A stretch of 64,000 nt of DNA from an uncultured Desulfospira sp. (GCA_963663165.1 OY760175.1:4160001-4224000); one strand, 5' to 3'. Shown: positions 16,857-35,607, counted from the stretch's first letter. The notes: generated by a model from the sequence alone, not told the origin. Made by a program: numbers and translations.

Positions 16857-18302
16857 ATGCTTAAAGAACGCCGTTCATTTACCGTTAACTGCCAGAGGTT
16901 TGTTGATCTGGGAATAACCGGATCTTCTTTTCTGTTGGCCTATGGAATTAAAAAATTCCTTTTATCCGGTGAATATAAAGGGTTGTCCACAGAACCCAAC
17001 TATTATTTGATTCTGCTTCTGGCCATGCTGTCCTGGCACATTTCCCTGAACTGGATGGGAATGTATGGCCTGTACTTTCGCAAGAACCATTTCCGGCAGT
17101 ATTTTACCACCATTTTAAAATCCTGCTGCCTGGGGATTTTTTTGTTGAGCCTGGCCATGTACGCCATGCATATCCAGGAGGTCAGCCGTGTCCTGATCTC
17201 CATATTTTTCTTTTTAAATATTTTTTTTCTGGCCGTGACCAAATATGCGGCCCAGAAAATATTAAAAAAGGTCAGGGCCCGGAGGTTTAATACTAAAAAC
17301 GTCATCATCGTCGGCAGTGGGAACCGGGCAAAGGAGGTCATTGCGGCCGTAAAAAATCAGGATGATACACGGTTCACGATTTCAGCCTGTTTTGAGGTGG
17401 ACAGTGAAAGACTGGGCCAACCCATAGCCGAGGGGTACCGGGTGACCGGCCTGGTCAAGGACCTTGAAGACTATATGCAGACCCATGTGGTGGATGAACT
17501 GATTTTTGCCACACAGCTAAAAGGGGTGAAAGACGGGGACCGGTATATCGAACTTGCAGAAACACTGGGAATAAAGGTCCGGATTGTGCCGGACTGGGAA
17601 CTGCACCACCTGAAATACTACCCCAACCTGGCCCGGGTGGCATTCGGGGAGTTTTTGGGCATTTACAACATGACCCTCCAGTTCACCCCGCCAAATGAGG
17701 GAGAGCTGCTGCTGAAAAGCGCCTTTGATCTGGTTGTGGCCACCCTTTTGACCATTCTCTTGAGCCCGCTGCTCCTCGGGATTGCCATTGCCATTAAATT
17801 TTTTTCCCAGGGGCCGGCGCTTTACACCCAGGAGCGCCTGGGCCAGTATGGTAGAACATTTATGGTTTATAAATTCAGAACCATGGTGGAAGGGGCCGAC
17901 GAACTTTTAAAAGAACTGGCGGAAATGAATGAAGCAGACGGGCCGGTCTTTAAAATCAAAAATGACCCGCGAATTATCCCCTGGGTGGGCACCTTTCTCA
18001 GGAAAACCAGCCTGGATGAGCTTCCCCAGCTGTTCAACGTGCTCAAAGGGGAAATGAGCCTTGTGGGCCCCCGGCCCCCTATCCCCAAAGAGGTGGATGA
18101 ATACTCCATCTGGCAGCGTCGGCGGCTTTCCATGAAGCCGGGCATGACCTGCCTGTGGCAGATCGCGCCCCACAGAAACGAGCTGAGCTTTGAAGACTGG
18201 ATCCAGCTGGACCTGCAATACATCGACACCTGGTCTATATTTAACGACATCTGGATCCTGGTGCTGACCGCCCGGGCGGTTCTTACTGGCGCCGGGCAAT
18301 AG
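16857..18302 (+). CDS. Priming glycosyl-1-phosphate transferase (WcaJ/WbaP-like)
   Basis: N-terminal TMs; YKFRTM, DPRI, SLDELPQLFNVLKGEMSLVGPRP. Confidence 0.93.
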   Translation: MLKERRSFTVNCQRFVDLGITGSSFLLAYGIKKFLLSGEYKGLSTEPNYYLILLLAMLSWHISLNWMGMYGLYFRKNHFRQYFTTILKSCCLGIFLLSLAMYAMHIQEVSRVLISIFFFLNIFFLAVTKYAAQKILKKVRARRFNTKNVIIVGSGNRAKEVIAAVKNQDDTRFTISACFEVDSERLGQPIAEGYRVTGLVKDLEDYMQTHVVDELIFATQLKGVKDGDRYIELAETLGIKVRIVPDWELHHLKYYPNLARVAFGEFLGIYNMTLQFTPPNEGELLLKSAFDLVVATLLTILLSPLLLGIAIAIKFFSQGPALYTQERLGQYGRTFMVYKFRTMVEGADELLKELAEMNEADGPVFKIKNDPRIIPWVGTFLRKTSLDELPQLFNVLKGEMSLVGPRPPIPKEVDEYSIWQRRRLSMKPGMTCLWQIAPHRNELSFEDWIQLDLQYIDTWSIFNDIWILVLTARAVLTGAGQ

Positions 18303-18405
18303 CGGACAGAAAAGCCGCGTGTAACGGATCATATTTTTATAATCTAACCAAGGGGCACCAGGCTTGATCTTAGAGCCAAAACAAGACGTTCCTCGGCACG
18401 GTTAC

Positions 18406-18585
18406 TAACGGCCACGGGCCGCCTTGGTTATCCAGCCAAGAACCGCCCACAACGAATAATGAAAGTCTTATCAGGATGTTAGTGAGACTTTCATATAACG
18501 GCCACGGGCCGCCTTGGTTATCCAACCAAGAACTGCCCACAACAAATATTGAAAGCACTCAACAGGTTGCTGAGTCTTTCATATA
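18406..18585 (+). repeat. Two tandem 90-bp repeat units
   Basis: Units start at 18406 and 18496 (taacggccacgggccgccttggttatcca...ctttcata). Confidence 0.85.
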
Positions 18586-18626
18586 AAAAAGTTCAAAATT
18601 TGTTTGCGGCCACATCTTGAAGCAAC

Positions 18627-19031
18627 TCATGGGCAAATAAGTTTTATGTTTGGGAAATACGTTCTATATTTTGCAATGTCCCTTGTGACTAAGTCAAATG
18701 AAGATACTGTAGCGTGAGCACCAATGAAGAAATCCGGAAGGGTTGAACTTTTAGTGCCCTTTTTTCTTCGATACTCAAGGAATGTCTTTCCAGCCAAAAA
18801 CAAAGCTTCGCGTGGAATTTCCAGGACTTTTACACCCACTTGTTCAACAGCGTCCTCGACTTCTTCAATACGGTTGAAACCAATTGATATTTGGGTATAC
18901 ACAATTGAATTAATAAATAATGTATTCGTCTGGCTATACTGACTTAATACGTCTTCAGACCAGTTTCCCCATTTAGGATCATTCGTAAACAGATCAAGCA
19001 ACACACACGAATCAATGAAAATTCCGTTCAT
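18627..19031 (-). CDS. VapC/PIN toxin (distal cassette)
   Basis: IFIDSCVLLD, LPDFFIGAHA, VTRD. Confidence 0.9.
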   Translation of the reverse strand: MNGIFIDSCVLLDLFTNDPKWGNWSEDVLSQYSQTNTLFINSIVYTQISIGFNRIEEVEDAVEQVGVKVLEIPREALFLAGKTFLEYRRKKGTKSSTLPDFFIGAHATVSSFDLVTRDIAKYRTYFPNIKLICP

Positions 19032-19252
19032 TTTATTTTTCTTGTCATATTCATGATTTCGTCTGTAGACATTTTAGCTGTAGCAATCCCCCTTAACTTC
19101 GAAAATTTAGAGGTCGTTTTGTTTTTTGATACTTTGACCAGATAAAATCTTCCGTTATCTTCATGAAAATCAACGTCTGTCTCTGGAGCAATACCTAATA
19201 TTTCCCTTACATTCTTGGGGATAGTGACTTGGCCTTTTGTGGTTACACGCAT
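19028..19252 (-). CDS. AbrB/MazE-type antitoxin
   Basis: MRVTTKGQVTIPKNVREILG; AGGAG RBS; upstream palindrome agtaatac-N6-gtattact. Confidence 0.9.
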   Translation of the reverse strand: MRVTTKGQVTIPKNVREILGIAPETDVDFHEDNGRFYLVKVSKNKTTSKFSKLRGIATAKMSTDEIMNMTRKIK

Positions 19253-19321: not shown

Positions 19322-20215
19322 ATCGGGTAGCCGGGGGTAGTTATCTACCCCAGACCCCCTCAGAACCGTACGTGACAGTTTCCCGTCATACGGCTCAAGC
19401 ATTTCTAAGGCTAAGCCTTGCGGGGCCGCCCGGTTGTTTGAGCAATAATGAAATTTACAGTCATTTCATAGCATGCGTCCTTGGGCATCGGCCAGGAAGT
19501 ACTGTTTTTTTTTCCTGGTCAAAGACATACGTCCTTTGAAAATGCCTTGGATGTAAATGCCGTACGCTCCTTTAACAACCTTTGCGATACGCATCTACAG
19601 TCTTTTAGCAGCATAAAGCTGCTGATGGGCGCACCAGCTAATGCCGTCATTTGCTTTCCCATCTTAAAAGATTCTCTAAACTCTCTCGCAAAGAAACACC
19701 TGCCCGGGTGTGTCTGTAGTCACACCCGCCGGACGTCAGCTTCCTTTCGGACCGGGTAATATCGGGGTTTTCTCCTCAACCCGTATCCACCTCATTACGA
19801 GATGGCCTTCGCTTTTTCCTGCATCTTACGCCCGCACCCCCATCAGTGTGCCTTGCGGTTTCACCTGCCGAATGTTCCCGGCGAAGATACGGGGTTTCCA
19901 CGTTCCACATTATTGCCGATTAATGGATGACTTAGGCCTGCCCACTGCACCGGCGGCGCAACATCTCACGCGGCAGTTCCGACACCTGCATCCTGACCAC
20001 TCACCTTTTGGTCCAAGCTTACCAGCCTCTTTAGCTTGTTCTCCCTGACGACGCTTAAGGAACATTCAATTAATTTGACCATATCATCCAAACCCTTGCC
20101 CTCACCCGGAATGAGGCTTCCAGGAGGGTATCCACCTCACGGCTTCCACCCCTTCCGCAACTGCGGAATTCGGTACTTTGTCGGTTGGGCTTCACACCGT
20201 TGCCGGATGCACCGG
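19322..20215 (-). mobile_element. Group II intron copy E, ORF-less, 5' end deleted
   Basis: Domain V GAGCCGTATGACGGGAAACTGTCACGTACGGTTC, 3' end ACCCGAT; homology to other copies stops at 20215. Confidence 0.88.
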
Positions 20216-21045
20216 CCATTGCCAGAACCATGAAACAAGTCAATGGATCGACCGGCAGCAAAATAAACTGTTTCATGGTGACTTTTACCTATCCCTGTCA
20301 GTTCAGAGATGTGGCATATCTGAATCAACGGGCAGTTTATTCTCTGATGTTTTCATGTGTATCCGGCACTTTGAAAGATTTTGGGCTCAACCCACGGCAC
20401 CTTGGTGCTCAGATCGGTATAACCATGGTCCTTCACACCAATAGCAGAAGATTGGACTTTCACCCGCATATTCACGTAATTGTTCCAGGTGGCGGTGTTG
20501 ATCCATCCAGACGGCAATGGAAAAAGAAAAAGGCAAGTATTTGTTTAACCAGAAAGCCCTGGCCAAGGTTTTCCGGGCACGTTTCCTGGATGGATTGAAC
20601 AAAAAAAATTTGCCGATCCCCAAAGGTGCTCGTCCCAAATGGGTTGTTGATTGTGAGAGGGTTGGAGCAGGTCTCTCTGCCCTGAAGTATCTGTCCAGGT
20701 ATTTATACAGGGGAGTGATCAGCGAGCGTAATATTATTGCCAACCAGAACGGTCAGGTTACCTTCAGGTATATTGACGGCAAAACCAAAAAAGTATGTAC
20801 GCGAACCCTTAACGGCGAAGATTTCCTGCGCCTGATCCTGCTTCATGTATTGCCCCGGGGATTTCGCAGGGCAAGGGATTACGGTTTTCTTCATGGGAAT
20901 GCCAAAAAAACTGCTCTTTCTGGTACAGATGATTCTCCACGTACGGATTACGGCAATAGTGCGTCGGCCAAGGCCTGTGTTTAAATGCCCCCATTGCGGG
21001 CAGCCTATGAAAATCCTGGGGATAAAACCTGCCGGTGCGGGATAG
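20216..21045 (+). pseudogene. IS91-family (Y2 HUH) transposase, 5'-truncated and frameshifted
   Basis: Four frames give HCQNHE.., FMVTFT, HPHIH (HUH), YLSRY (Y2), HVLPRGFRRARDYG, CPHCG. Confidence 0.88.
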
Positions 21046-21255
21046 GAAAAACAAAAGGTAGAAACCAAATCTCAATTTAACTGGAGGAGAGCAACTCTAT
21101 GAAATAATCCGGCTTTTTTTAGAAAGCCCTGAAAATGGCTATGCTACAGGTGCGCCTTATCTGCGATGTCCGGAAATCAAACTCCTTCCAGCCTCCTAAT
21201 CTCCAAAAAGATATTTTCATATATAGGGAAAGCCCGGTTCATTTTGGCCGGGCTT

Positions 21256-21316
21256 GTTCAACAATCGGATAAGATCGTGGTTCGTTCCTCACACGATCTA
21301 TCCTTATTCGTTGTGT
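21256..21316 (-). other. attC (short, 61 bp), abutting the IS91-like end
   Basis: Minus strand ACACAAC...AGGATAGATCGTG/CACGATCTTATCC...GTTGAAC. Confidence 0.75.
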
Positions 21317-21321
21317 GAGTA

Positions 21322-21732
21322 TTATAGCAAGATTGTTTTGAATGCCTTTTTCCCTTTAATTCTGTAAATAGAAAAGTCACGGTCAATAGTCGCTACTTCA
21401 TTTATCCCCATTTTTTCAGCGAGTAGGACAAGACATGAATCTGCAAAATCCATTGGTAGATCTCGATACTTTTTAGTCAGTTCTTTGATCCTCTGAAAAT
21501 CTGAATTTAATACATTGACTATTTCAACGCCACCCCGACTGACCCATTCGATAAAATCTAACTGTGCATTTCGGTTAAAATCCAAAAGATGCAATGTTTC
21601 TGTAATGGATGCGATCGTGGTTATGAGTAGAGCTTGATTTGACTGGATAAATTCAACAGTCTTTTGATGGTATTTGTCTGAGGAATCAAAAAGAGCAATT
21701 AATGGCCCACTATCAATAAGAATTTTGTTCAT
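21322..21732 (-). CDS. VapC/PIN toxin (cassette)
   Basis: ILIDSGPLIALFD, MDFADS, TIDRDF. Confidence 0.92.
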   Translation of the reverse strand: MNKILIDSGPLIALFDSSDKYHQKTVEFIQSNQALLITTIASITETLHLLDFNRNAQLDFIEWVSRGGVEIVNVLNSDFQRIKELTKKYRDLPMDFADSCLVLLAEKMGINEVATIDRDFSIYRIKGKKAFKTILL

Positions 21733-21971
21733 TTTCTTTTTGCCTGGAGTTTGTTTTTAAGAAGCTCTTTCCTGTTTGAGGACAAATCATTCCGGCCACT
21801 AGCATATTTGCCGAATAAATCTTGACCAGATTCCCACGCACTTTTTGTTTCTATTTTTTTGAAATAATCTACAAGGCTTTTTCGGATAAGCTCGGACTTT
21901 GTTAAGCCGAGATTTTTTGCTGTATAGTTTAATTGCTGCTCAAGCCTTGGGTCAAGTCTTAGTGTAATCAT
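21729..21971 (-). CDS. RHH/CopG antitoxin
   Basis: MITLRLDPRLEQQL...TKSELIRKSL; GGAGG RBS. Confidence 0.88.
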   Translation of the reverse strand: MITLRLDPRLEQQLNYTAKNLGLTKSELIRKSLVDYFKKIETKSAWESGQDLFGKYASGRNDLSSNRKELLKNKLQAKRK

Positions 21972-22035
21972 AATATCACCTCCGTAATACATATGGTAAT
22001 ACATCAAGACTAAAGAATCAACGTTCTTTTTTACA

Positions 22036-22870
22036 GTCGGGTAGGTCGGGGGGGCTTTACAGCCCCTTTCCCCCCCCTCAGAACCGTACGTGACAGTTTC
22101 CCGTCATACGGCTCAAGCATTTCTAAGGCTAAGCCTTGCGGGGGCGCCCGGTTGTTTTAGCAATAATGAAATTTACAGTTATTCCATAGCATGCTTCTTT
22201 GAGCATCCCCCAGGGAAGTACAGTTTTTTTTTCCCTGTTCAAAAAAACATACGTCCTTTGAAAATGCCTATAGATGTGCATGCCGTGTGCTTCTCTAACA
22301 ACCTTTGCGATACTCATCTACAGTCTTTTAACAGTATAAACTGCTGATGGGCGCACCAGCTATTGCCGTCATTTGCTTTCCCCTCTTCAAAGATTCTCCA
22401 GACTCTCTCGCAAAGAAACGCCTGCACGGGTGTCCCCGGCGAGGGTGCGGGGTTTCCACGTTCCACATTATTGCCGATTAATGGATGACTTAGGCCTGCC
22501 CACTGCACCGGTGGCGCAACATCTCACGCGGCAGTTCCGAAACCTGCATCCTGACCGCTCACCTTTTGGTCCAAGCTTATCAGCCTCTTTAGCTTGTTCT
22601 CCCTGACGACGCTTGAGGAACATTCAATTAATTTGACCATATCATCCAAACCCTTGCCTTCACCCGGAATGAGGCTTCCAGGAGGGTATCCGCCTCACGG
22701 CTTCCACCCCTTCCGCAGCTGTGGAATTCGGTACTTTGTCGGTTGGGCGTCACACCGTTGCCGGATGCACCGGTAACTGCATGCCACCTAGGGTGCCGGC
22801 AGGAGAATGCCGGGTTTGGTCAGGACCGACTGGCCCGCCAGACAGCCAATAATGCGACTTCGTGTCGCAC
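22036..22870 (-). mobile_element. Group II intron copy D, ORF-less, with an extra internal deletion
   Basis: 5' GTGCGACACG, domain V, 3' ACCCGAC; lacks about 165 nt (junction near 22433) present in the other copies. Confidence 0.9.
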
Positions 22871-23001
22871 CGAGAACGGGGAGCTGAGGGGCCAGGCTTT
22901 TGAACCCCAAAACTTCCGATAAAAAGTTAAGTTTTCCTGAACCAGAAACTCCCGATAAGGCCGCGCAGTAAGCTTGGTTCCTCTCCAGCGTTTTGTTGTG
23001 C
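22871..23001 (-). other. attC site; intron D adjoins its R' core
   Basis: GCACAAC...CAGCTCCCC-GTTCTCG|GTGCG. Confidence 0.88.
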
Positions 23002-23093
23002 AATATTTTTTCAAGCAAGCCGTCTCTCTTTCAAAATTGAAAATCAACTTATTTTTCCTTGCGCCATACGTCAATATGACGTATATTGAAATC

Positions 23094-23367
23094 ATGAATA
23101 AAGTTATTCTCCATAAACGAGTCCAAAAACAACTTAAGAAACTTCCTTCTCATATAGTTACAAACCTTGAAGTTTGGATGCAAACCGTTGAAGAAGACGG
23201 AATTTTTGAAGCTCGTAAGCTCTCTGGTTACCATGATGAGCCTTTGGGCGGCAAAAGAAAAAGGGCAGCGGTCTTTCAGGCTGTCCAAAGCATATAGAGG
23301 TTTTTACATTGAGCACAATGGCAATATAATTATAGAGGTTATTGAGGTGAACAAACATGAGTACTGA
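23094..23367 (+). pseudogene. RelE/HigB-like toxin split by a +1 A in a homopolymer; gene pair inverted relative to the array
   Basis: MNKVILHKRVQKQL...GYHDEPLGGKRK continues as GQRSFRLSKAYRGFY...EVNKHEY in another frame. Confidence 0.8.
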
Positions 23368-23653
23368 ATACGGCATTAAAGAATTAGAAAACGATTTTGG
23401 ACCTTTGACATTTGGCAAGGCTCTTGCGGCCCATAGAAAAGGCGAAGAAATGACCCAGAAGCAGTTTGCTGATTTTTTAGGTATAACATCATCCAGCCTT
23501 TGTGACCTGGAAAAAGGACGAAGAATACCGTCTGTGAAAAGGGCTGCTAAAATTGCGAAGGCCTTAGGAATGTCAGAAAAAACATGGGTTAAATTTGCCA
23601 TACAAGACATGATCCGTGAGGCTGAGCTTGAGTATACTGTGTCTGTCGCGTAA
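23357..23653 (+). CDS. HigA-like XRE antitoxin
   Basis: MTQKQFADFLGITSSSLCDLEKGRRIPS HTH. Confidence 0.9.
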   Translation: MSTEYGIKELENDFGPLTFGKALAAHRKGEEMTQKQFADFLGITSSSLCDLEKGRRIPSVKRAAKIAKALGMSEKTWVKFAIQDMIREAELEYTVSVA

Positions 23654-23735
23654 TACATTTAATGTGTTATAGGCTTTCAATAAGGCCGACAAGTCGAACT
23701 TGTTGAAAGTTAACCATCTCCGTTTCGTTTCAAAG

Positions 23736-25668
23736 ATCGGGTAGGTCGGGGGCTTTACAGCCCCTTTCCCCCCTCAGAACCGTACGTGACAGTTTCCCGT
23801 CATACGGCTCAAGCATTTCTAAGGCTGAGCCTTGCGGGGCCGCCCGGCTGTTTTCTCTTGCCAATGCTGAAATTTACAGTTATTTCATTACATATTTTCT
23901 CGGCCGCTGTGACAGGGATCACCTTTGGTTTCACCCGTCTTGCCCAGTGGATTTTATCCATGAAGGCCTGCACATTTTTCCTGGATGGTTTAATGAGCAG
24001 TTTGCCGTCATACTTACGAATGTTTTGGCCCAGAAAATCGAATCCCCGGTCAATTCGGGTAATCAGGGTCTTTTCTTCAGACAGGGATAGATCCCGTTCC
24101 GAGAGAAATCTGATTATGGCCGGTTTGACCTTGTCTTCAAGAAGTTCCCGGGTTGCACCGGTAATAATGAAATCATCAGCATACCGGATGACGTTGATTT
24201 TGGAACTGATGTCCTTACCGTTGCGTCTGTCCCTGACAGGGGCAACAGATCCGGCAGTCCCTTCAATGCCGTCCAGAACCATGTTGGCCAGTGTGGGAGA
24301 GGCAATGCCGCTTTGCGGTGTTCCCCGGCCTGTTGGAAAGAATTTACCGTCCTCCATAAACCCGGAAGCCAGCCATTTGGTAAGGATCATCTTATCCATA
24401 GGGATATGGTCGATCATCCAGTCATGGCTGATTTCATCAAAGCAGGCTTTAATATCCGCTTCAAGTATCCAGACCGGCGAGGTTTTCTTGGCCAGTGTAT
24501 TAAAGCATTGGGATATGGCGTCCGCACATCGCCTGTATGACCTGAATCCGTATGAATTGTGGTCGGCCAGTGTTTCTGCTATCGGCTCCAATGCCAGTTT
24601 ATACAATGCCTGAACAGCCTGTCGATCATTGTGGGAATACTTAACGGACGTTTCTTGCCGTTCTTTTTGGGAATATAGATCCGCCTGAGCGGTGATGGCT
24701 GGTATCCTCTCCGTTTGAGGTTGCCTGCTGCCTGGAATTTCTTCCTGGCGGTTTTCCAGGTGACGTTGTCGACACCCGGAGTGCGTTTCCCTTTATTGGA
24801 GGTCACGCGTTTTACAGCTAACAGCTTTGCCTGGTAAGAGTGGGTCAGAAGCCACTGGAGGGCCTTGGCCCGTCCGTATCTTCCTTCTTTCACAGCCTTT
24901 GCGATACGCATTTGCAGTCTTTTAACAGCTTCATAAATGGCTTTCCAATGAATGGACTTCCAATTCCTGAAACTGCCGATGGGCGCACCAGCTGTTGCCG
25001 TCATTTGCCTTCCCATCTTCAAAGATTCTCCAGACTATCTCGCAAAGAAACACCTGCCCGGGTGTGCCTGTAGCCACACCCGCCGGACGTCAGCTCCCTT
25101 TCGGGCCGGATAATGTTGGGATGTTCTCCTCAATCCGTATCCACCTCATTACAAGATGGCCTTCGCTTTTTCCTGCATCTTACTCCCGCACCTCCATCAG
25201 TGTGCCTTACGGTTTCACCTGCCGAATACTCCCGGCGAAGATACGGGGTTTCCACGTTCCACACTATTGCCAATTAGTGGATGACTTAGGCCTGCCCTCT
25301 GTACCGGCGGCGCAACATCTCCGTGCAGGCAGTTAGGAAACCTGCAGCCTGACCGCTCACCTTTTGGTCCAAGCTTACCAGCCTCTTTAGCTTGTTCTCC
25401 CTGACGGTACTTACGGAACATTCAATTAATTTGACCATATCATCCAAACCCTTGCCCTCACCCGGATTGAGGCTTCCAGGAGGGTATCTGCCTCACAGCT
25501 TCCACCCCTTCCGCACTTGCGGAATTCGGTACGTTGTCGGTTGGGCTTCACACCGTTGCCGGATGCACCGACCACCGCATGCCACCTAGGGTACCGGCAG
25601 GAGAATGCCGGGTCTGGTCAGGACCGACTGGCCCGCCAAACAGCCAATAATGCGACCTCGTGTCGCAC
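23736..25668 (-). mobile_element. Group II intron copy C with a defective IEP
   Basis: GTGCG...ACCCGAT boundaries; near-identical to copy A except a 372-nt in-frame deletion. Confidence 0.93.
23809..25016 (-). pseudogene. ltrA: Group II intron RT/maturase: frameshift near 24618, 124-codon deletion after YADD, PQGG changed to PQSG
   Basis: ORFs 24579-25022 and 23809-24606; RYADDF present. Confidence 0.9.
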
Positions 25669-25798
25669 CCGAACGGGGAGCTGAGGGGCCAGGCTTCTTA
25701 AACCCAAAAGCTCCGATAAAAGTTTAAATTTTCTTGAACCAGGGACTCCCGAGAAGGCCGCGCAGTAAGCCTGGTCCCGCTCCAGCGTTTTGTTGGCC
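25669..25798 (-). other. attC site; intron C inserted in its R' core
   Basis: GGCCAAC...CAGCTCCCC-GTTCGG|GTGCG. Confidence 0.9.
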
Positions 25799-25809
25799 CT
25801 TTAAAGTAT

Positions 25810-26187
25810 TCATTTGTGTTTAATGCTTTTCTTATATGTTGTAATTAACTTTGATATCATAGAATTAACATTGCAATTTTCATTATCTGCAAGATCATTT
25901 AACTTTTTAAAGTTTGAATCTGTAATGTTTTTGTCTAAAATTCTTACACTTCCATCGTTCCAACGTAGCACACCTCGACTATCAAGAATAAATCTATCAG
26001 GATATTGCTTTGCAGCCTTTTTCTTGGTTTCATTCCAAGCAGCATTTATTTCTCGAGTGGAAGATAGCTGCCCAACAAGACCTAAACGTAAAGTAACATT
26101 TTCTTTTAAATGTTCTGTTCCGTTCGGAAGTTCTGTAAGCTGTTCCAACATCATTTTCGATATTCTGCCTTTTGATAACATTGCCAT
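25810..26187 (-). CDS. Hypothetical cassette protein
   Basis: AT-rich ORF filling the space between two attC sites; start MAMLSK. Confidence 0.75.
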   Translation of the reverse strand: MAMLSKGRISKMMLEQLTELPNGTEHLKENVTLRLGLVGQLSSTREINAAWNETKKKAAKQYPDRFILDSRGVLRWNDGSVRILDKNITDSNFKKLNDLADNENCNVNSMISKLITTYKKSIKHK

Positions 26188-26212
26188 ATTTCCAATCCCT
26201 ATGATATTACGA

Positions 26213-26328
26213 GGCCAACGGGTAGGGGCATATTGCCGAGCAGGTTGTCGAAGCCAAGTTTTTTCGAAAACCAAGGGCTTTTGAAAAGCCGCTAGCCCCC
26301 CGGGTCGGCCTGCAGCGTTTTGTTGGGC
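26213..26328 (-). other. attC site with the L' arm deleted
   Basis: Aligns to attC 33159-33285 but lacks agctcagccgacc. Confidence 0.8.
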
Positions 26329-26333
26329 AAATT

Positions 26334-26687
26334 TTAATCAACTTCTCGTGGTTCAAGTAACAAATTAAGACCTTGCAATATTTCTTCAAAACGTTTTTTT
26401 GAAAGCGTCCCGATTTTTTCGGTTAGATCACTTTTATTGACTGTATAAATTTGCGAAATATTCACAACGCTTTTCTTCGGAATGTTTGCTTCACCTTTTT
26501 TAAGAGTTACATTTCCGGGTGCGCTGCCTAACCTTAAATTTGATGTGAGGGCACAAACAACGGAAGTGTTTATTCTACTTTGATTAAAAAGGTTATTTTG
26601 AATTACAAGATGTGGATGACGATAACCGGGTTCTGATCCTTGTGGCTCTCCAAAATCAATCCAATAGATGTCACCCTGTCTTACCAT
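26334..26687 (-). CDS. MazF/PemK toxin (cassette)
   Basis: QGDIYWIDFGEPQGSEPGYRHPHLVIQNNLFN. Confidence 0.92.
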   Translation of the reverse strand: MVRQGDIYWIDFGEPQGSEPGYRHPHLVIQNNLFNQSRINTSVVCALTSNLRLGSAPGNVTLKKGEANIPKKSVVNISQIYTVNKSDLTEKIGTLSKKRFEEILQGLNLLLEPREVD

Positions 26688-26926
26688 TGGTCTTTCACCA
26701 TTTTTTTATGTTTCGGGCGCATTTTTTGAACTAAAGAGTCTGCTTGTTGATCATCATAAATGTCGTTTAGCTGTTGAAGCAATTCAATGTTTTGATGACG
26801 CTGGATATACTCTTTGACTGCTTGTGAAAAGATATAACTTCTCGAGACATTTAAACTTTTTGCAAGAATATTTATTTTTTCAAAAATGGGCTTTTCTATA
26901 GAAATGGCTGTTTTTACATTCGGCAT
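26681..26926 (-). CDS. RHH-type antitoxin
   Basis: KTAISIEKPIF...VSRSYIFSQAVKEY; overlaps the toxin gene. Confidence 0.87.
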   Translation of the reverse strand: MPNVKTAISIEKPIFEKINILAKSLNVSRSYIFSQAVKEYIQRHQNIELLQQLNDIYDDQQADSLVQKMRPKHKKMVKDQW

Positions 26927-26990
26927 ATTGATTCCTCCATTATTTTTTTACAGTATAATGTCTGGTATGAAAGACGTCAATACTTTGGTA

Positions 26991-27121
26991 GCCCACCGGG
27001 GAGCTAACCGGCCGGGCGTTGAAGCCACAAAAGCTCCGATAAAAGTTTAAAATTTCATTAACCAAGCTGCTTCAAAATGCCGCGCAGATAAGCCCGGTCG
27101 GGTTCAGCGGCTTTGTTCGCC
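26991..27121 (-). other. attC site with R' core changed from GTT to GGT
   Basis: GGCGAAC...TAGCTCCCC-GGTGGGC. Confidence 0.82.
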
Positions 27122-27124
27122 TCA

Positions 27125-27460
27125 TCAGTATGCAAACAGTTCCTGTAAACAATTACAAACTTTAATTTGGGTAGTTTTTGAAATAACTCCAAACTTTTTG
27201 ACTAATCTTAATTTATCTACAGCTCTTATTTGATCCAATAATATCAAGCCTTTTTTACCTTGGAATGTACATTGAATTCTTGTGGGGAAATTGAAGCCTT
27301 TGGAGGTCATTGGGGCAACAATAGCCGTTTTTAATGAAGACATTTCGTCAGGAGAAATTACAACACAAAGCCTTTTTTTCTTTATTTCGTGACCTTGTGT
27401 CGGGTCCAATTGAACTAACCAAATGTCGAATCTGTTGATAGGCTGATTCACCATTCCCAA
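27125..27460 (-). CDS. PemK/MazF toxin (cassette)
   Basis: DIWLVQLDPTQGHEIKKKRLCVVISPDEM, LDQIRAVDK. Confidence 0.92.
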   Translation of the reverse strand: MGMVNQPINRFDIWLVQLDPTQGHEIKKKRLCVVISPDEMSSLKTAIVAPMTSKGFNFPTRIQCTFQGKKGLILLDQIRAVDKLRLVKKFGVISKTTQIKVCNCLQELFAY

Positions 27461-27702
27461 TCCTCATCATCAACCAGAGATGCATCCAACCATTCCTGGT
27501 CCAACTCCTCTTCGTTTTCTGCTTTAAGGTATTTTTCAAATTGTTTTTTCCACCCCTGCCTGGGTTTTCTGGATGGTTTTATTAACAGCCCTTCATCAAG
27601 CACCTTAAATTCCAGTTCTTTCTCATTAAGTTGTGCTTGTTCAATAATCGCTTTGGGAATTCTCACTCCTTGCGAATTTCCAATTCTTATTAATGTTGCC
27701 AT
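27448..27702 (-). CDS. AbrB/MazE antitoxin
   Basis: LIRIGNSQGVRIPKAII. Confidence 0.92.
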   Translation of the reverse strand: MATLIRIGNSQGVRIPKAIIEQAQLNEKELEFKVLDEGLLIKPSRKPRQGWKKQFEKYLKAENEEELDQEWLDASLVDDEDWEW

Positions 27703-27787
27703 AAACACCTCTAATTTTGATTAATGTAATTACAACATAATCACTTAATTCTGTTTTTGTCAAATCAAAATCGTAGGTTTTTAGAAG

Positions 27788-28777
27788 ATCGGGTAGCCGG
27801 GGGTAGTTATCTACCCCAGGCCCCCTCAGAACCGTACGTGACAGTTTCCCGTCATACGGCGCAAGCATTTCTAAGGCTAAGCCTTGCGGGGCCGCCCGGT
27901 TGTTTTAGCAATAATGAAATTTACAGTTATTTCATAGCATATATCCTTGAGCATCTGCCCGGAAAGTATTTTTCTTTTTCCGGGTCAAAAGAGAACATCC
28001 TTTTGAAAGATGCCTCTGGCGTGTATGCTGTGTGCTACTTTAACAACCTTTGCGATACGCATCTACAGTCTTTTAACAGAATAAATCTGCTGATGGGCGC
28101 ACCAGCTATTGCCGTCATTTGCTTTCCCATCTTCAAAGATTCTCCAGACTCTCTCGCAAAGAAACACCTGCCCGGGTGTGCCTGTAGCCACACCCGCCGG
28201 ACGTCAGCTCCCTTTCGGGCCGGATAATGTTGGGATGTTCTCCTCAATCCGTATCCACCTCATTACAAGATGGCCTTCGCTTTTTCCTGCATCTTACTCC
28301 CGCACCTCCATCAGTGTGCCTTACGGTTTCACCTGCCGAATACTCCCGGCGAAGATACGGGGTTTCCACGTTCCACACTATTGCCAATTAGTGGATGACT
28401 TAGGCCTGCCCTCTGCACCGGCGGCGCAACATCTCACGCGGCAGTTAGGAAACCTGCAGCCTGACCGCTCACCTTTTGGTCCAAGCTTACCAGCCTCTTT
28501 AGCTTGTTCTCCCTGACGGTACTTACGGAACATTCAACTACTTTGACCATATCATCCAAACCCTTGCCCTCACCCGGATTGAGGCTTCCAGGAGGGTATC
28601 TGCCTCACGGCTTCCACCCCTTCCGCAGTTGCGGAATTCGGTACGTTGTCGGTTGGGCTTCACACCGTTGCCGGATGCACCGACCACCGCATGCCACCTA
28701 GGGTACCGGCAGGAGAATGCCGGGTTTGGTCAGGACCGACTGGCCCGCCAAACAGCCAATAATGCGACTTCGTGTCG
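27788..28777 (-). mobile_element. Group II intron copy B, ORF-less; first 3 nt separated from it by copy A
   Basis: Begins CGACACG directly after the 3' end of copy A; domain V and ACCCGAT end. Confidence 0.9.
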
Positions 28778-31082
28778 ATCGGGTAGGTCGGGGGCTTTAC
28801 AGCCCCTTTCCCCCCTCAGAACCGTACGTGACAGTTTCCCGTCATACGGCTCAAGCATTTCTAAGGCTGAGCCTTGCGGGGCCGCCCGGCTGTTTTCTCT
28901 TGCCAATGCTGAAATTTACAGTTATTTCATTACATATTTTCTCGGCCGCTGTGACAGGGATCACCTTTGGTTTCACCCGTCTTGCCCGGAAGTATTGTTG
29001 ATGTTCCGGGTCAAAAGGATTTGCATCGCTTTTGATTTTGATGTGCCGTTGGATATGTATGCTGTGCGCTTTGATGAGTTCGGATGTTCTCGGGTTGCCG
29101 TTTTTATCTTTGACCACCGTTGAGAACCGCCCCGGTTTTGAGCCCTTTGACCAGTACGTCTTTTTCAACCATTGGATGCTTTTATTCCGGTGACGTCGTT
29201 TCACCCATTGCCACGCTTCATTCCATATGTACCCGTCAACATAGCTGAAAGTTTTTGCTGAGACAACATGTTTGTGATAGTTCGCCCAACCCCTTATTTT
29301 CATGTTAAGATCATGAATCAGAGCCTCGGCTTTCGATCCCCGGTGCTTCCTGAACGTCTCGTGGATTTTATCCATGAAGGCCTGCACATTTTTCCTGGAT
29401 GGTTTAATGAGCAGTTTGCCGTCATACTTACGAACGTTTTGGCCCAGAAAATCGAATCCCCGGTCAATTCGGGTAATCAGGGTCTTTTCTTCAGACAGGG
29501 ATAGATCCCGTTCCGAGAGAAATCTGATTATGGCCGGTTTGACCTTGTCTTCAAGAAGTTCCCGGGTTGCACCGGTAATAATGAAATCATCAGCATACCG
29601 GATGACGTTGATTTTGGAACTGATGTCCTTACCGTTGCGTCTGTCCCTGACAGGGGCAACAGATCCGGCAGTCCCTTCAATGCCGTCCAGAACCATGTTG
29701 GCCAGTGTGGGAGAGGCAATGCCGCCTTGCGGTGTTCCCCGGCCTGTTGGAAAGAATTTACCGTCCTCCATAAACCCGGAAGCCAGCCATTTGGTAAGGA
29801 TCATCTTATCCATAGGGATATGGTCGATCATCCAGTCATGGCTGATTTCATCAAAGCAGGCTTTAATATCCGCTTCAAGTATCCAGACCGGCGAGGTTTT
29901 CTTGGCCAGTGTATTAAAGCATTGGGATATGGCGTCCGCACATCGCCTGTATGACCTGAATCCGTATGAATTGTGGTCGGCCAGTGTTTCTGCTATCGGC
30001 TCCAATGCCAGTTTATACAATGCCTGAACAGCCTGTCGATCATTGTGGGAATACTTAACGGACGTTTCTTGCCGTTCTTTTTGGGAATATAGATCCGCCT
30101 GAGCGGTGATGGCTGGTATCCTCTCCGTTTGAGGTTGCCTGCTGCCTGGAATTTCTTCCTGGCGGTTTTCCAGGTGACGTTGTCGACACCCGGAGTGCGT
30201 TTCCCTTTATTGGAGGTCACGCGTTTTACAGCTAACAGCTTTGCCTGGTAAGAGTGGGTCAGAAGCCACTGGAGGGCCTTGGCCCGTCCGTATCTTCCTT
30301 CTTTCACAGCCTTTGCGATACGCATTTGCAGTCTTTTAACAGCTTCATAAATGGCTTTCCAATGAATGGACTTCCAATTCCTGAAACTGCCGATGGGCGC
30401 ACCAGCTGTTGCCGTCATTTGCCTTCCCATCTTCAAAGATTCTCCAGACTATCTCGCAAAGAAACACCTGCCCGGGTGTGCCTGTAGCCACACCCGCCGG
30501 ACGTCAGCTCCCTTTCGGGCCGGATAATGTTGGGATGTTCTCCTCAATCCGTATCCACCTCATTACAAGATGGCCTTCGCTTTTTCCTGCATCTTACTCC
30601 CGCACCTCCATCAGTGTGCCTTACGGTTTCACCTGCCGAATACTCCCGGCGAAGATACGGGGTTTCCACGTTCCACACTATTGCCAATTAGTGGATGACT
30701 TAGGCCTGCCCTCTGTACCGGCGGCGCAACATCTCCGTGCAGGCAGTTAGGAAACCTGCAGCCTGACCGCTCACCTTTTGGTCCAAGCTTACCAGCCTCT
30801 TTAGCTTGTTCTCCCTGACGGTACTTACGGAACATTCAATTAATTTGACCATATCATCCAAACCCTTGCCCTCACCCGGAATGAGGCTTCCAGGAGGGTA
30901 TCCGCCTCACGGCTTCCACCCCTTCCGCAACTGCGGAATTCGGTACTTTGTCGGTTGGGCTTCACACCGTTGCCGGATGCACCGACCACCGCATGCCACC
31001 TAGGGTACCGGCAGGAGAATGCCGGGTTTGGTCAGGACCGACTGGCCCGCCAAACAGCCAATAATGCGACCTCGTGTCGCAC
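28778..31082 (-). mobile_element. Group II intron copy A, full length (2305 nt)
   Basis: 5' GTGCGACACG, IEP ORF, domains V/VI, 3' ACCCGAT. Confidence 0.95.
28851..30430 (-). pseudogene. ltrA: Group II intron RT/maturase (CL-like, no HNH domain) with one frameshift near 30032
   Basis: WKSIHW..RLQMRIAKA..GKRTPGVD N-terminus, TPQGG, RYADDF, RGWANYH; IDRAVQAL broken by one missing G. Confidence 0.92.
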
Positions 31083-31209
31083 CACGACGGGGAGCTCAGC
31101 CGCCCGGAGCGAGAACCGAGAACTTCCCCAAAATTAAATTCTTTTCAAAAACCAAGGTCTTTCAAAAAGCCGATAGCTCTCCGGGTCGGCCTGCAGCGTT
31201 TTGTTGTGC
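31083..31209 (-). other. attC site; introns A/B at its R' core (GTC variant)
   Basis: GCACAAC...GAGCTCCCC-GTCGTG|GTGCG; near-identical to attC 31952-32078. Confidence 0.88.
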
Positions 31210-31951: not shown

Positions 31952-32078
31952 GCACAACGGGGAGCTCAGCCGCCCGGAGCGAGAACCGAGTACTTCCCAA
32001 AAATTAATTTTTTTCAAAAACCAAGGCCTTTCGAAAAGCCGCTAGCTCTCCGGGTCGGCCTGTAGCGTTTTGTTAGCT
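31952..32078 (-). other. attC site
   Basis: AGCTAAC...GAGCTCCCC-GTTGTGC imperfect hairpin. Confidence 0.9.
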
Positions 32079-32614: not shown

Positions 32615-32744
32615 AGCTAACGCGGAGCTGAGGGGCCAGGCTTTTAAACCCCAAAACTCTCGATAAAAAGTTGAATTTTCCTGAACCAAGCACTCCCAAA
32701 AGGCCGCGCAGTAAGCCTGGTCCCTCTCCAGCGTTTTGTTCTGC
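32615..32744 (-). other. attC site
   Basis: GCAGAAC...CAGCTCCGC-GTTAGCT; same family as 22871 and 25669. Confidence 0.9.
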
Positions 32745-33158: not shown

Positions 33159-33285
33159 GCAGAACGGGGAGCTCAGCCGACCGGGGCGTATAACCGAGCA
33201 GGTTGTCGAAGCCAAGTTTTTTCGAAAACCAAGCACTTTCGAAAAGCCGCTAGCCCCCCGGGTCGGCTGCAGCGTTTTGTTGTGC
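33159..33285 (-). other. attC site of cassette 1
   Basis: GCACAAC...GAGCTCCCC-GTTCTGC. Confidence 0.9.
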
Positions 33286-34138: not shown

Positions 34139-34212
34139 GCATTAATTGCAATTTTTGGGTATTATTTTACACAACTTGAACTACCCCCAGAAAGATATTG
34201 GATACCTACCAT

Positions 34213-35607
34213 ATGAATCCGGCAAAATCAACACACGAAAACGAAATCAAAAGATTTTGGGACAATTACATTAATCGTTTAGAACATGCTGGTATTAAAA
34301 GTAATGTTTCCAGGTGGTATGTGATCAGAGCCGAGCAGTATATCAAGGCTTTTCCGGATAAGCGTCTGGCCGATCATAACCCTGAGGACGTGGTCTCCTA
34401 CCTGGAGCAGCAGGGCCGGGCCGGCCGGATTCAGGACTGGCAGTTCCGGCAGCTGGTCGATGCTATACAGAATTTATTTTCCATGCTTGGCGTATCCTGG
34501 CTGTCGGATGTAGACTGGCAGTTCTGGATGGATTCAGCCGCGTCCCTGACAGAAGTTCATCCCACAGTTGCCGGCAGCCTTCCGGCTAAAGCAACCATTG
34601 AAAAATTATCCGGCCGAAAAGGCTCACAGCTTTCCGCTGTCCGCAAACTTCATGCAGATCTTCTGGAAAAGCTGCTGATCGTCTTGCGGACGAAGGGGTA
34701 TTCCATAAGAACCGAGCAGTCTTACGAATCCTGGGTAAGCCGTTTTATTGAGTTTTGCCAAAATCAGGACCCGGCCGGGCTTGGTAAGGTTGAAGTGGTC
34801 TCCTTTTTGCAACATCTGGCTGTTGGGCGGAATGTGGCGGAGAGTACCCAGAACCAGGCGTTGAATGCCCTTGTCTTTTTTTATGACAAGGTTTTGGAAC
34901 AGCCCCTGGGGGATCTTGGGGATTTTGTCCGGGTAAAACGCCCTAAACGGCGACCGGTTGTGCTGACCCGGATTGAAGTGGCAAAACTGATCGACCACAT
35001 GGAGGGCCGCCAGAAACTGATGGCCTCCCTGCTTTATGGCACCGGCATGCGGCTGATGGATTGTATCAGGCTCAGGGTCCAGGATATTGATTTTGGGTAT
35101 TATCAGATTGTGGTCAGGGACGGAAAAGGCAAAAAAGACCGGGTAGTTCCATTGCCGGAAGGGCTTGTCAGCGATCTTACGGCCCATCTTGAAAAAGTTC
35201 GTAAACTGCACGAGGCAGATTTGGAAAAAGGGTTTGGAGAGGTCTATCTACCCTATGCCTATGACCGCAAATCCCCCAAAGCGGCAAAGGAATGGGGATG
35301 GCAGTATGTGTTCCCCAGCGGACGGCTTTCCGTTGATCCAAGGAGTGGAAAAACACGCCGTCACCATATTCACGAAAATGGTCTTCAAAAAGCCGTGAAA
35401 AAAGCGGCGCAGCAGGCCCAGATTACGAAAAGGGTAAACTGCCACGCCCTTCGCCACAGTTTTGCCACCCATCTTCTGGAAAGCGGTTATGATATCCGTA
35501 CCGTGCAGGATCTGCTCGGCCATGCCAATGTTTCAACAACCATGATCTATACCCATGTGCTTAACCGGGGCGGGAGAGGCGTAAAAAGTCCCTTTGACGT
35601 GCTGTAA
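34213..35607 (+). CDS. intI: Integron integrase, long form with an N-terminal extension
   Basis: [18 protein letters not shown]...TTMIY plus the integron-specific WQYVFPS..SVDPRSG..RRHH segment. Confidence 0.96.

Follow-up and report, generated by a model that had tools for sequence, protein, structure and literature searches.

An ORF-less group II intron lineage at attC sites of a chromosomal integron in an uncultured Desulfospira sp.

We analysed a window of 64,000 nucleotides (nt) from an uncultured Desulfospira sp., that is, the whole stretch C1:4160001-4224000 of a single 6.74-Mb contig (C1). The window holds a chromosomal integron and five group II introns, here named copies A to E, three of which (B, D and E) lack an open reading frame (ORF). 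The original prediction for this stretch had described B, D and E as one ORF-less lineage with a shared deletion of the gene for the intron-encoded protein (IEP), and the integron context was absent from it. All five introns lie on the minus strand and were found by Rfam search, each matching both RF00029 (domains D5/D6; 59.8-72.1 bits, cut-off 40) and RF02012 (D1-D4; 54.3-95.2 bits, cut-off 34). Their ends were set from the sequence (5′ GTGCGACACG; 3′ ...CTACCCGAT or ...GAC), which gives termini of 5′ GUGCG and 3′ GAU/GAC and a bulged A in D6, 7 nt from the end. The D5 triad was AGC in 19 of 20 aligned copies, the sole exception being copy B with CGC. The Rfam matches, the GUGCG end, the bulged A and the AGC triad support the identification of these elements as group II introns.

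The integron integrase gene, intI, is located at 34198-35607 on the plus strand, with its family match over residues 156-469. It scored 456.5 bits against TIGR02249 (cut-off 265) and was the only match above the cut-off in the genome. The cassette array runs on the minus strand from about 34000 down to 18600; intI (plus) is therefore divergent from the introns, the cassette genes and the R″...R′ reading of the attC sites, all of which are on the minus strand.

According to the alignment of A-E, copy A (28778-31082; 2305 nt) is full length, and a 1-nt loss in a G run divides its IEP gene into frames of 151 and 451 codons. Copy C (23736-25668) is of a type we call deltaX and combines the frameshift of A with a deletion of about 373 nt in the maturase/D region. 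Copies B (27788-28777; 990 nt), D (22036-22870; 835 nt) and E (19322-20218) are without nearly the entire IEP gene. Copy B adjoins the 3′ end of A and lacks its own first 3 nt (GTG). Its D6, with the bulged A, occupies 27788-27828 and its D5 27829-27862. The retained 5′ remnant of the IEP gene in B (28038-28130), which contains the former start codon region, is the core of a predicted D4a arm beginning about 30 nt upstream of it, and the junction zone of the deletion covers the neighbouring 97 nt (27941-28037; B 741-837). Copy D has an additional internal deletion (columns 465-638 of alignment A2), by which distal D2 and most of D3 are gone, and a D6 of the A/C type. Copy E is truncated at the 5′ side by about 95 nt; the whole intron 5′ end is gone and no attC site lies upstream.

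Further copies in the genome were found by BLAST with A and F and subsequent mapping of the ends. There are two full-length copies, A and F, and the latter (C1:5573101-5575411) has an uninterrupted frame of 532 codons. Three copies are of the deltaX type, with one common deletion of about 373 nt at three different junctions: C, C2 (C1:1886896-1888829; continuous 441-codon frame) and C3 (C1:1861332-1863201; a further 72-nt deletion). Eight are ORF-less, namely B, D, E, G (C1:5576789-5577783), H (C1:903578-904577, plus strand), I (C1:1885151-1886142), J (C1:1880445-1884151) and K (C1:1871580-1879647), and six others are fragments of the family. J carries an insertion sequence (IS) within its junction zone, and K a 7-kb composite insertion at nearly the same position, with transposase-like (DDE) and DruA-like genes. 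The two insertions (loci L001 and L002), both IS-type, lie within about 15 nt of each other and show inverted ends and short A/T-rich duplications.

The deletion was mapped against the intact copy F in alignments of A-E and of the eight ORF-less copies of the genome. All eight, B, D and E among them, showed one common deletion architecture. A first shared deletion of 37-38 nt lies directly behind the IEP start (F ~704-741); the 5′ remnant, which contains the RLQMRIAK-region string, is then kept to F ~790; the main deletion ends at F ~1917-2072; and two more shared deletions measure about 31-40 nt and 5 nt. Global alignment of F with the remnant under cheap gaps gave spurious blocks of 4-14 nt, and only blocks of at least 20 nt were used. 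Across the junction the ORF-less copies differ from one another by indels of only 1-3 nt, and the breakpoints are therefore shared, as had been claimed for B, D and E from the joining of their IEP remnants at about the same point. Point changes are shared as well (CTGCAAATG to CTGTAGATG, and GGCTGTG to GGTTGTT) in all eight copies and in other genomes. The shared indels indicate a single ORF-less lineage. That B, D and E instead each lost the IEP gene on their own, at a hotspot of deletion, is extremely improbable: what can be said for it is the general point that fragments and other deletion forms exist (deltaX; L019, L021), and it is contradicted by the alignments, in which four shared indels and the shared point changes recur in all eight copies and in other genomes.

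Divergence among the eight ORF-less copies was far from uniform across domains, as the original prediction had held. Per site it was 0.237 in the 97-nt junction zone, compared with 0.064 in D1-D3, 0.038 in the IEP 5′ remnant, 0.033 in the D4 3′ side, 0.007 in D5 and 0.116 in D6. Variable columns numbered 48 of 97 in the junction zone, 101 of 649 in D1-D3, 8 of 93 in the 5′ remnant and 6 of 78 in the D4 3′ side; Fisher tests of the zone against the other three gave p values of 1.3e-12, 4e-10 and 9e-10, respectively, to be read with the caution that columns of related sequences are not independent. Three haplotypes of the junction zone could be told apart, {B,G}, {E,I,J} and {D,K,H}, with a mutual likeness of just 62-78%. 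The earlier statement that the remnant has diverged a lot thus fits the ~97 nt behind the RLQMRIAK region and does not fit that remnant itself, and the near identity claimed for domains I and V is true of D5 and not of domain I, in which B, D and E are 93-95% identical.

The remaining D4 of nine ORF-less copies was folded with RNAalifold into two arms. The predicted D4a arm surrounds the former ribosome-binding and start-codon region. The predicted D4b is a long hairpin closed by GGUUGUU/AACAACC, and the junction zone makes up its inner part. The closing stem of D4b reads GGUUGU/ACAACC in the ORF-less and GGCUGU/ACAGCC in the ORF-containing copies, a compensatory difference. Within the drifted zone is a hairpin of 7-8 bp which is already found in the coding sequence of F (CCCGGAA...TTCCGGG) and which occurs as CCCGGAAA/TTTCCGGG, CCAGGAA/TTCCTGG and CAGGGAA/TTCCCTG, and in other genomes as CUCGGAAA/UUUCCGAG. 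In this fold 96.5% of cells were paired and 7 of 93 pairs were changed on both sides (19 cells), counts that lean in favour of the structure since it was predicted from the same alignment. None of 500 shuffles reached the paired share, the number of both-sides-changed cells or the covariation score; 47 of the 500 reached seven compensatory pairs, and slid controls gave 0-3 pairs. Compensatory pairs numbered 10 of 26 in D5-D6 (20 copies) and 49 of 149 predicted pairs in D1-D3 when three distant relatives were included. These results support the view that the D4 remnant is not junk and that its predicted folded arms are kept by compensatory changes.

The protein of copy F has 526 aa with a YADD motif and comprises reverse transcriptase (RT), X and D regions (361 bits against TIGR04416). 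Its best solved relative is the TeI4h protein (6me0_C; E=1.5e-165, 555 bits), and residues 8-490 of F align with 11-483 of the 562-aa TeI4h protein. As the alignment stops before the endonuclease (En) part of TeI4h, F was filed as En-minus. IIA and IIC proteins scored at most 128 bits against F (IIC, E 6e-34 to 3e-27). Since the TeI introns are described as CL/IIB1 (PMC2882425), the family was filed as CL/IIB1-like and En-minus, a putative assignment made by nearest solved relative and not by a class-wide tree. In a GIIM search of the genome, the maturase domain of this family was found just in F and in the frameshifted A, the other four matches being unrelated introns or a fragment; F is therefore the single intact IEP of the family. 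Its protein is likely to be the driver, which would splice and reverse-splice the ORF-less RNAs in trans. The D4a arm is the usual place of IEP binding, as established for IIA introns and suggested for the TeI introns in the account given in PMC2882425. Its retention in the ORF-less copies fits a dependence on the F protein.

All the intact-5′ copies of the family lie directly behind an attC site. We identified seven complete long attC sites (126-130 nt) and one more with R″ only; their pattern is R″ (xxxxAAC AAAACGCTG) ... (CTCAGCTCCCCGTTxxxx) R′. Those directly upstream of introns are at 31083-31209 (copy A; ending ...CCCCGTCGTG), 25669-25798 (copy C; ending ...CCCCGTTCGG) and 22871-23001 (copy D; ending ...CCCCGTTCTCG), and three intron-free sites are at 33160-33285, 32616-32744 and 31953-32078, all on the minus strand. 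In three of three intron-free pairs the R′ tail was complementary to the next R″ (GTTCTGC/GCAGAAC, GTTAGCT/AGCTAAC and GTTGTGC/GCACAAC), so that these junctions are as expected of the integrase. The intron begins 3 or 4 nt after the GTT or GTC of R′ in 24 of 24 junctions, drawn from the copies and fragments of this genome, from relatives including a family 66-70% identical, and from signature-matched records. The insertion point is between positions 6 and 7 of GTTRRRY, with the intron in sense orientation to the cassettes. The upstream exon ends (arrow, insertion point) in GTTAGG↓ for F, GTCGTG↓ for A, GTTAAG↓ for G, GTTCGG↓ for C and K, GTTGTG↓ for C2 and J, GTTCTCG↓ for D and I, and GTTGTCG↓ for C3. 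H (GTTCTGG↓) lies outside the arrays, behind a short attC-like hairpin. Three 5′ fragments follow the same insertion rule. In C2 the joined exons restore the R′ box, GTTGTG↓CC matching the next R″, GGCACAA. The insertion point is 6-7 nt downstream of the integrase crossover (G↓TT).

At the junction of A and B (28770-28785), the end of A (..CCCGAT) runs directly into the start of B (CGACACG), from which GTG is missing; the two copies form a tandem or nested pair. If A were nested after nt 3 of B, the exon of B would end in GTC↓, an offset that occurs at none of the 24 other junctions. For this reason we prefer to read A as inserted at the canonical site, with a 3-nt loss in B, although the nested alternative yields the identical sequence.

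Candidates for the exon-binding sites (EBS) were sought by complementarity to the exons. For EBS1 we infer the D1 loop GGUUUC-NN-AACUGCC (A2 columns 354-359), of which C-N-N-A-A-C would pair with GUU-N-N-G of R′, and a candidate EBS2, GGGAG (columns 275-279), would pair with CUCCC at -8 to -12. A one-base gap is usual between the intron-binding sites IBS2 and IBS1, and the candidate pairings leave such a gap. The NN positions of the candidate EBS1 vary between copies; the match is full, with one bulged U, for D, I and H, and wobble-complete for copy G001a. The H site has no CUCCC match. The string AACGG, complementary to CCGTT, was rejected as EBS1, as it falls within the stem of a predicted GNRA-capped hairpin. 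A replication-strand bias of insertion was likewise rejected: copies in the window, those at 5.5 Mb and H are on one template strand and those at 1.86-1.89 Mb on the other, replication strand being taken from cumulative GC skew (minimum ~3.98 Mb, maximum ~0.74 Mb), with an origin estimate that is flat around the window.

The ORF-less copies were found at many different junctions. The downstream flanks of 13 copies occur once in the genome, with the exceptions of A, whose flank is B, and C, whose downstream cassette gene has a partial paralogue; the copies are thus not segmental duplicates. Near-identical pairs occupy different junctions: B and G differ at 8 of 989 positions (99.2% identical), I and E at 7 of 895 (99.2%), and the neighbours I and J at 1 of 806 and 0 of 190 (99.9-100%). 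Empty and re-used sites were also seen. In a genome of another genus, where the ORF-less lineage is present (G004), contig C6 carries the VapBC cassette of the E site behind ...GAGCTTAGCGTTCGC↓ with no intron, and at the VapBC junction of E a different ORF-less haplotype was found at locus L039. At locus L033 an ORF-less copy occupies the HicAB junction at which the present genome has the deltaX copy C2. A genome of the same genus (G001) has two full ORF-less copies at other attC sites together with an intact full-length copy, and a 34-nt lineage signature was found in nine stretches of the genome contig collection, in records of Desulfobacter, Desulfospira and Desulfobacterium. The unique flanks, the near-identical pairs and the empty or re-used sites indicate repeated homing of ORF-less copies.

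Alternatively, the copies might owe their number mainly to IntI, which would have moved or duplicated the cassettes that carry them, and not to reverse splicing. As the insertion point lies 6-7 nt past the crossover, an intron belongs to the following cassette, and its position relative to R′ is constant; moreover, the junction of the B 3′ end with MazEF recurs in G001:C2, that of an intron with VapBC in L039 and that with HicAB in L033. However, these recurring junctions hold different intron haplotypes or forms, all eight ORF-less copies of the genome precede different cassettes with unique flanks, and H stands behind a different, short attC-like hairpin that is not in an array. We therefore regard multiplication as cassette passengers as very unlikely.

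Taken as a whole, the evidence favours the reading of B, D and E as members of one ORF-less lineage which spread after ORF loss, likely by means of the F protein in trans (probability about 0.78). The IEP gene would have been lost once, through the main deletion inside D4b and smaller ones, with retention of the ribozyme domains together with the D4a arm and a folded stub of D4b. The ORF-less form would then have been copied to at least eight junctions in this genome, and it is also present in related genomes; the family would home to the top (coding) strand of attC, inside the R′ box at GTTNN(N)G↓Y, in the orientation of the cassettes.

Several observations weigh against this reading. B, D and E are each damaged, and none is evidenced as a mover in its present form. 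In contigs of four sequencing runs over 20250-23735, no joint skipping exactly 22036-22870 was found in RNA or DNA; the joints listed at copy D have sides shorter than 50 nt, lie at repeats and were given no weight. Two marine-sediment metatranscriptome runs did give contigs over the intron 5′ part, with depths that sum over organisms and do not imply transcription. Most copies other than those named above have one mismatch to the candidate EBS1. When three more genomes were added to the D4 alignment, the same helices were obtained with a covariation term that was unfavourable at +1.75. Finally, the copies are mosaic. Over their first ~700 nt, B and G show 98-100% identity to the ORF-containing copies C2, A and C, and their D4/3′ part differs by 12-17% from every ORF-containing copy (3′ 155 nt), and by up to 23% in single blocks; a patch with a 2-nt indel (ctgcc--gcgtgag) is found in B, D, E and H and not in their closest kin G, I/J and K; and D6 types are swapped between ORF-less and ORF-containing forms. 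Segments thus recombine between the forms, and the deletion itself could pass by conversion.

The deletion may alternatively have been spread by homologous recombination, gene conversion or RT template switching into resident ORF-containing copies. The B/G mosaic, with an ORF-containing type 5′ part and the remainder of the ORF-less lineage, is in keeping with this, as are the patch local to B, D and E in the window, the exchanged D6 types and the HicAB junction, which holds a deltaX copy in one genome and an ORF-less copy in another. The mosaic copies also mean that the low divergence of D1-D3 is partly homogenisation. However, the E/I/J, D/K and H types share 90-95% identity over D1-D3 with each ORF-containing copy of the genome, and are therefore not converted present residents. 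Their zone haplotypes differ by 22-38%, which indicates long separate histories. Conversion would in addition need an ORF-containing copy to have been first at each of eight sites, and the near-identical I and J lie next to each other at two different junctions. The sharp contrast in divergence over about 100 nt inside D4 is harder to explain by homogenisation. Spread of the deletion by conversion is accordingly judged unlikely, and we retain the view that the ORF-less copies themselves were mobile.

On this evidence the non-autonomous lineage proposed in the original prediction is supported by the shared indels, the eight junctions and the near-identical pairs, and the intact IEP for which the genome was to be searched is present as copy F. 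The proposed selection on RNA structure finds support in the compensatory changes of the D4 remnant and of D5-D6, with gene conversion as a confounding factor in D1-D3. We infer an active lineage with G, H and I as its intact members, of which B, D and E have become inactive relics; G, H and I, and not B, are the candidates for activity among the ORF-less copies.

Toxin-antitoxin pairs make up most of the cassettes of the window, with a RelE/HTH pair, two of MazEF type and two of PIN type. They include, all on the minus strand, a MazE/MazF cassette at 27125-27708, an RHH/PemK cassette at 26334-26926, an orf92/PIN cassette at 21322-22007 and an AbrB-type/PIN cassette at 18627-19250. In the stretch 25810-26333, an R″ box at 26328 has no R′ within 175 nt and is followed instead by about 460 nt with overlapping frames of 154 and 156 codons on both strands and no Pfam match, which may be an interrupted attC site or an ORF-less cassette. 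An attC type of about 60 nt (21256-21321; CACAAC...GTTGAAC) lies behind the PIN cassette, and past the last cassette (18300-18626) there are two direct repeats of about 90 nt with GTTGTGGGC...GGATAACCAAGG.

The other two intron clusters of the genome (5.54-5.58 Mb and 1.86-1.89 Mb) are also cassette arrays, the latter with toxin-antitoxin cassettes and IS elements. Beside the F/G array at 5.54-5.58 Mb, an intI-like gene that is split in two and has a TAA stop (C1:5540264-5541065; 80.8 and 51.6 bits against TIGR02249) is probably a decayed second integron. Three of the family fragments (C1:388063-388153, 5542906-5543362 and 5565885-5566519) kept the 5′ end and the attC junction and lost the 3′ part. 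Incomplete reverse transcription would be expected to truncate the 5′ side instead, and these fragments therefore resemble products of later deletion or recombination. A second intron family, 66-70% identical, is found at GTTNNN↓ behind attC sites in L018 (7095-10772 and 11642-14453; genome G001), L022 (G005) and L020 (G033), which indicates that the preference for attC is older than the family of A-K. In L021 (2488-2952; G033:C180) a mini-element of about 465 nt has the first ~360 nt of D1 joined almost directly to D5/D6.

The nearest precedent is the TeI3 (ORF-less) and TeI4 (ORF-containing) introns of Thermosynechococcus elongatus, whose IEPs act in trans by assay (Mohr, Ghanem and Lambowitz 2010, PMC2882425). 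TeI3 is described there as having 17 ORF-less copies with identical D4b breakpoints and a second, small D4a deletion. As far as that description goes, the two systems have in common an intron of CL/IIB1 type (putatively so in the present family) of which ORF-less copies outnumber ORF-containing ones, a D4b deletion with the same breakpoints among copies, a small D4a deletion, a broken remnant frame, intact IEPs in the same genome, abutting or nested copies (twintrons) and a copy hit by an IS. Unlike TeI, the present IEP is without an En domain (aligned up to residue 490 of 526, compared with 483 of 562). The targets here are attC R′ boxes, whereas those of TeI are described as dispersed and defined by diverged EBS families (PMC2882425). 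The present lineage extends across several genomes, and mobility in trans, assayed for TeI, is here proposed from comparison of copies.

Among introns of integrons, UHB.I2 is a IIB1/CL1 intron located behind attC in sense orientation in a soda-lake metagenome (Sonbol and Siam 2021, PMC7923331). The present family, compared with it by description only, is similarly in sense orientation and putatively of IIB1/CL1 type, immediately downstream of attC, in an array rich in toxin-antitoxin genes, and with an En-minus IEP. UHB.I2 is described as one ORF-containing copy at a contig end, with termini UUGCG..GU and no conserved exons. The present introns differ in having canonical termini, many copies that define the point in R′, and ORF-less and deltaX derivatives. 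Group IIC-attC introns (S.ma.I2; Leon, Quiroga, Centron and Roy 2010, PMC3001079) likewise target attC and are En-minus; in the account given there they insert in the bottom strand, antisense to the cassettes, and have class C IEPs and small RNAs. In contrast, the present introns use the top strand in sense orientation, their ribozyme part measures about 750 nt (D1-D3 alone about 650 nt), and the IEP matches IIC proteins at E~1e-33. They are thus not group IIC-attC introns, in strand or in class.

ORF-less group II introns of bacteria are described as rare and as nearly always present in genomes that also contain related introns, whose IEP possibly acts in trans (Zimmerly and Semper 2015, PMC4424553). 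The present family fits this general pattern, with eight ORF-less copies to one intact IEP, and its setting is an integron. A literature search on ORF-less introns in integrons found no paper, the term "ORF-less" being used there of cassettes. Dependence of ORF-less introns on a related IEP is parasitism of a known kind, and it is the integron setting that is unusual. Introns in integrons are known almost only as class C, antisense in attC; those studied here are CL/IIB1-like and lie inside R′ in sense orientation, and they occupy at least three arrays of one genome as well as several related genomes. We consider the ORF-less lineage real and well supported, and its association with the integron more interesting than the loss of the ORF.

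A broader picture may be drawn, though as a whole it is doubtful: a two-tier retroelement system resident in integrons of this bacterial family, made up of one autonomous CL/IIB1 intron and a larger number of ORF-less and deltaX copies that depend on it, with homing on the coding strand to CUCCC-C-GUUNNG, the conserved 3′ end of the attC family of the array, in which the introns would become the 5′ leader of the next cassette and would be movable by both RT and integrase. The ORF-less form may then persist because it is cheaply spliced from a polycistronic transcript, or may serve as an RNA-processing or insulating element. The finding raises the questions of how the introns, cassette transcription and shuffling by the integrase interact, whether homologous intron copies drive rearrangement of the cassette array, and whether the attC top strand is read by base pairing or by hairpin shape.

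As to the family itself, the one well-studied proliferating ORF-less lineage is that of a thermophilic cyanobacterium, as described in PMC2882425. The lineage in Desulfospira and its relatives, which is independent of that one and putatively of the same intron class, adds a second case, and its D4 has been trimmed in the same style. This speaks for a repeatable route from an autonomous retroelement to a dependent ribozyme, the step that has been invoked for the origin of introns of the spliceosomal type.

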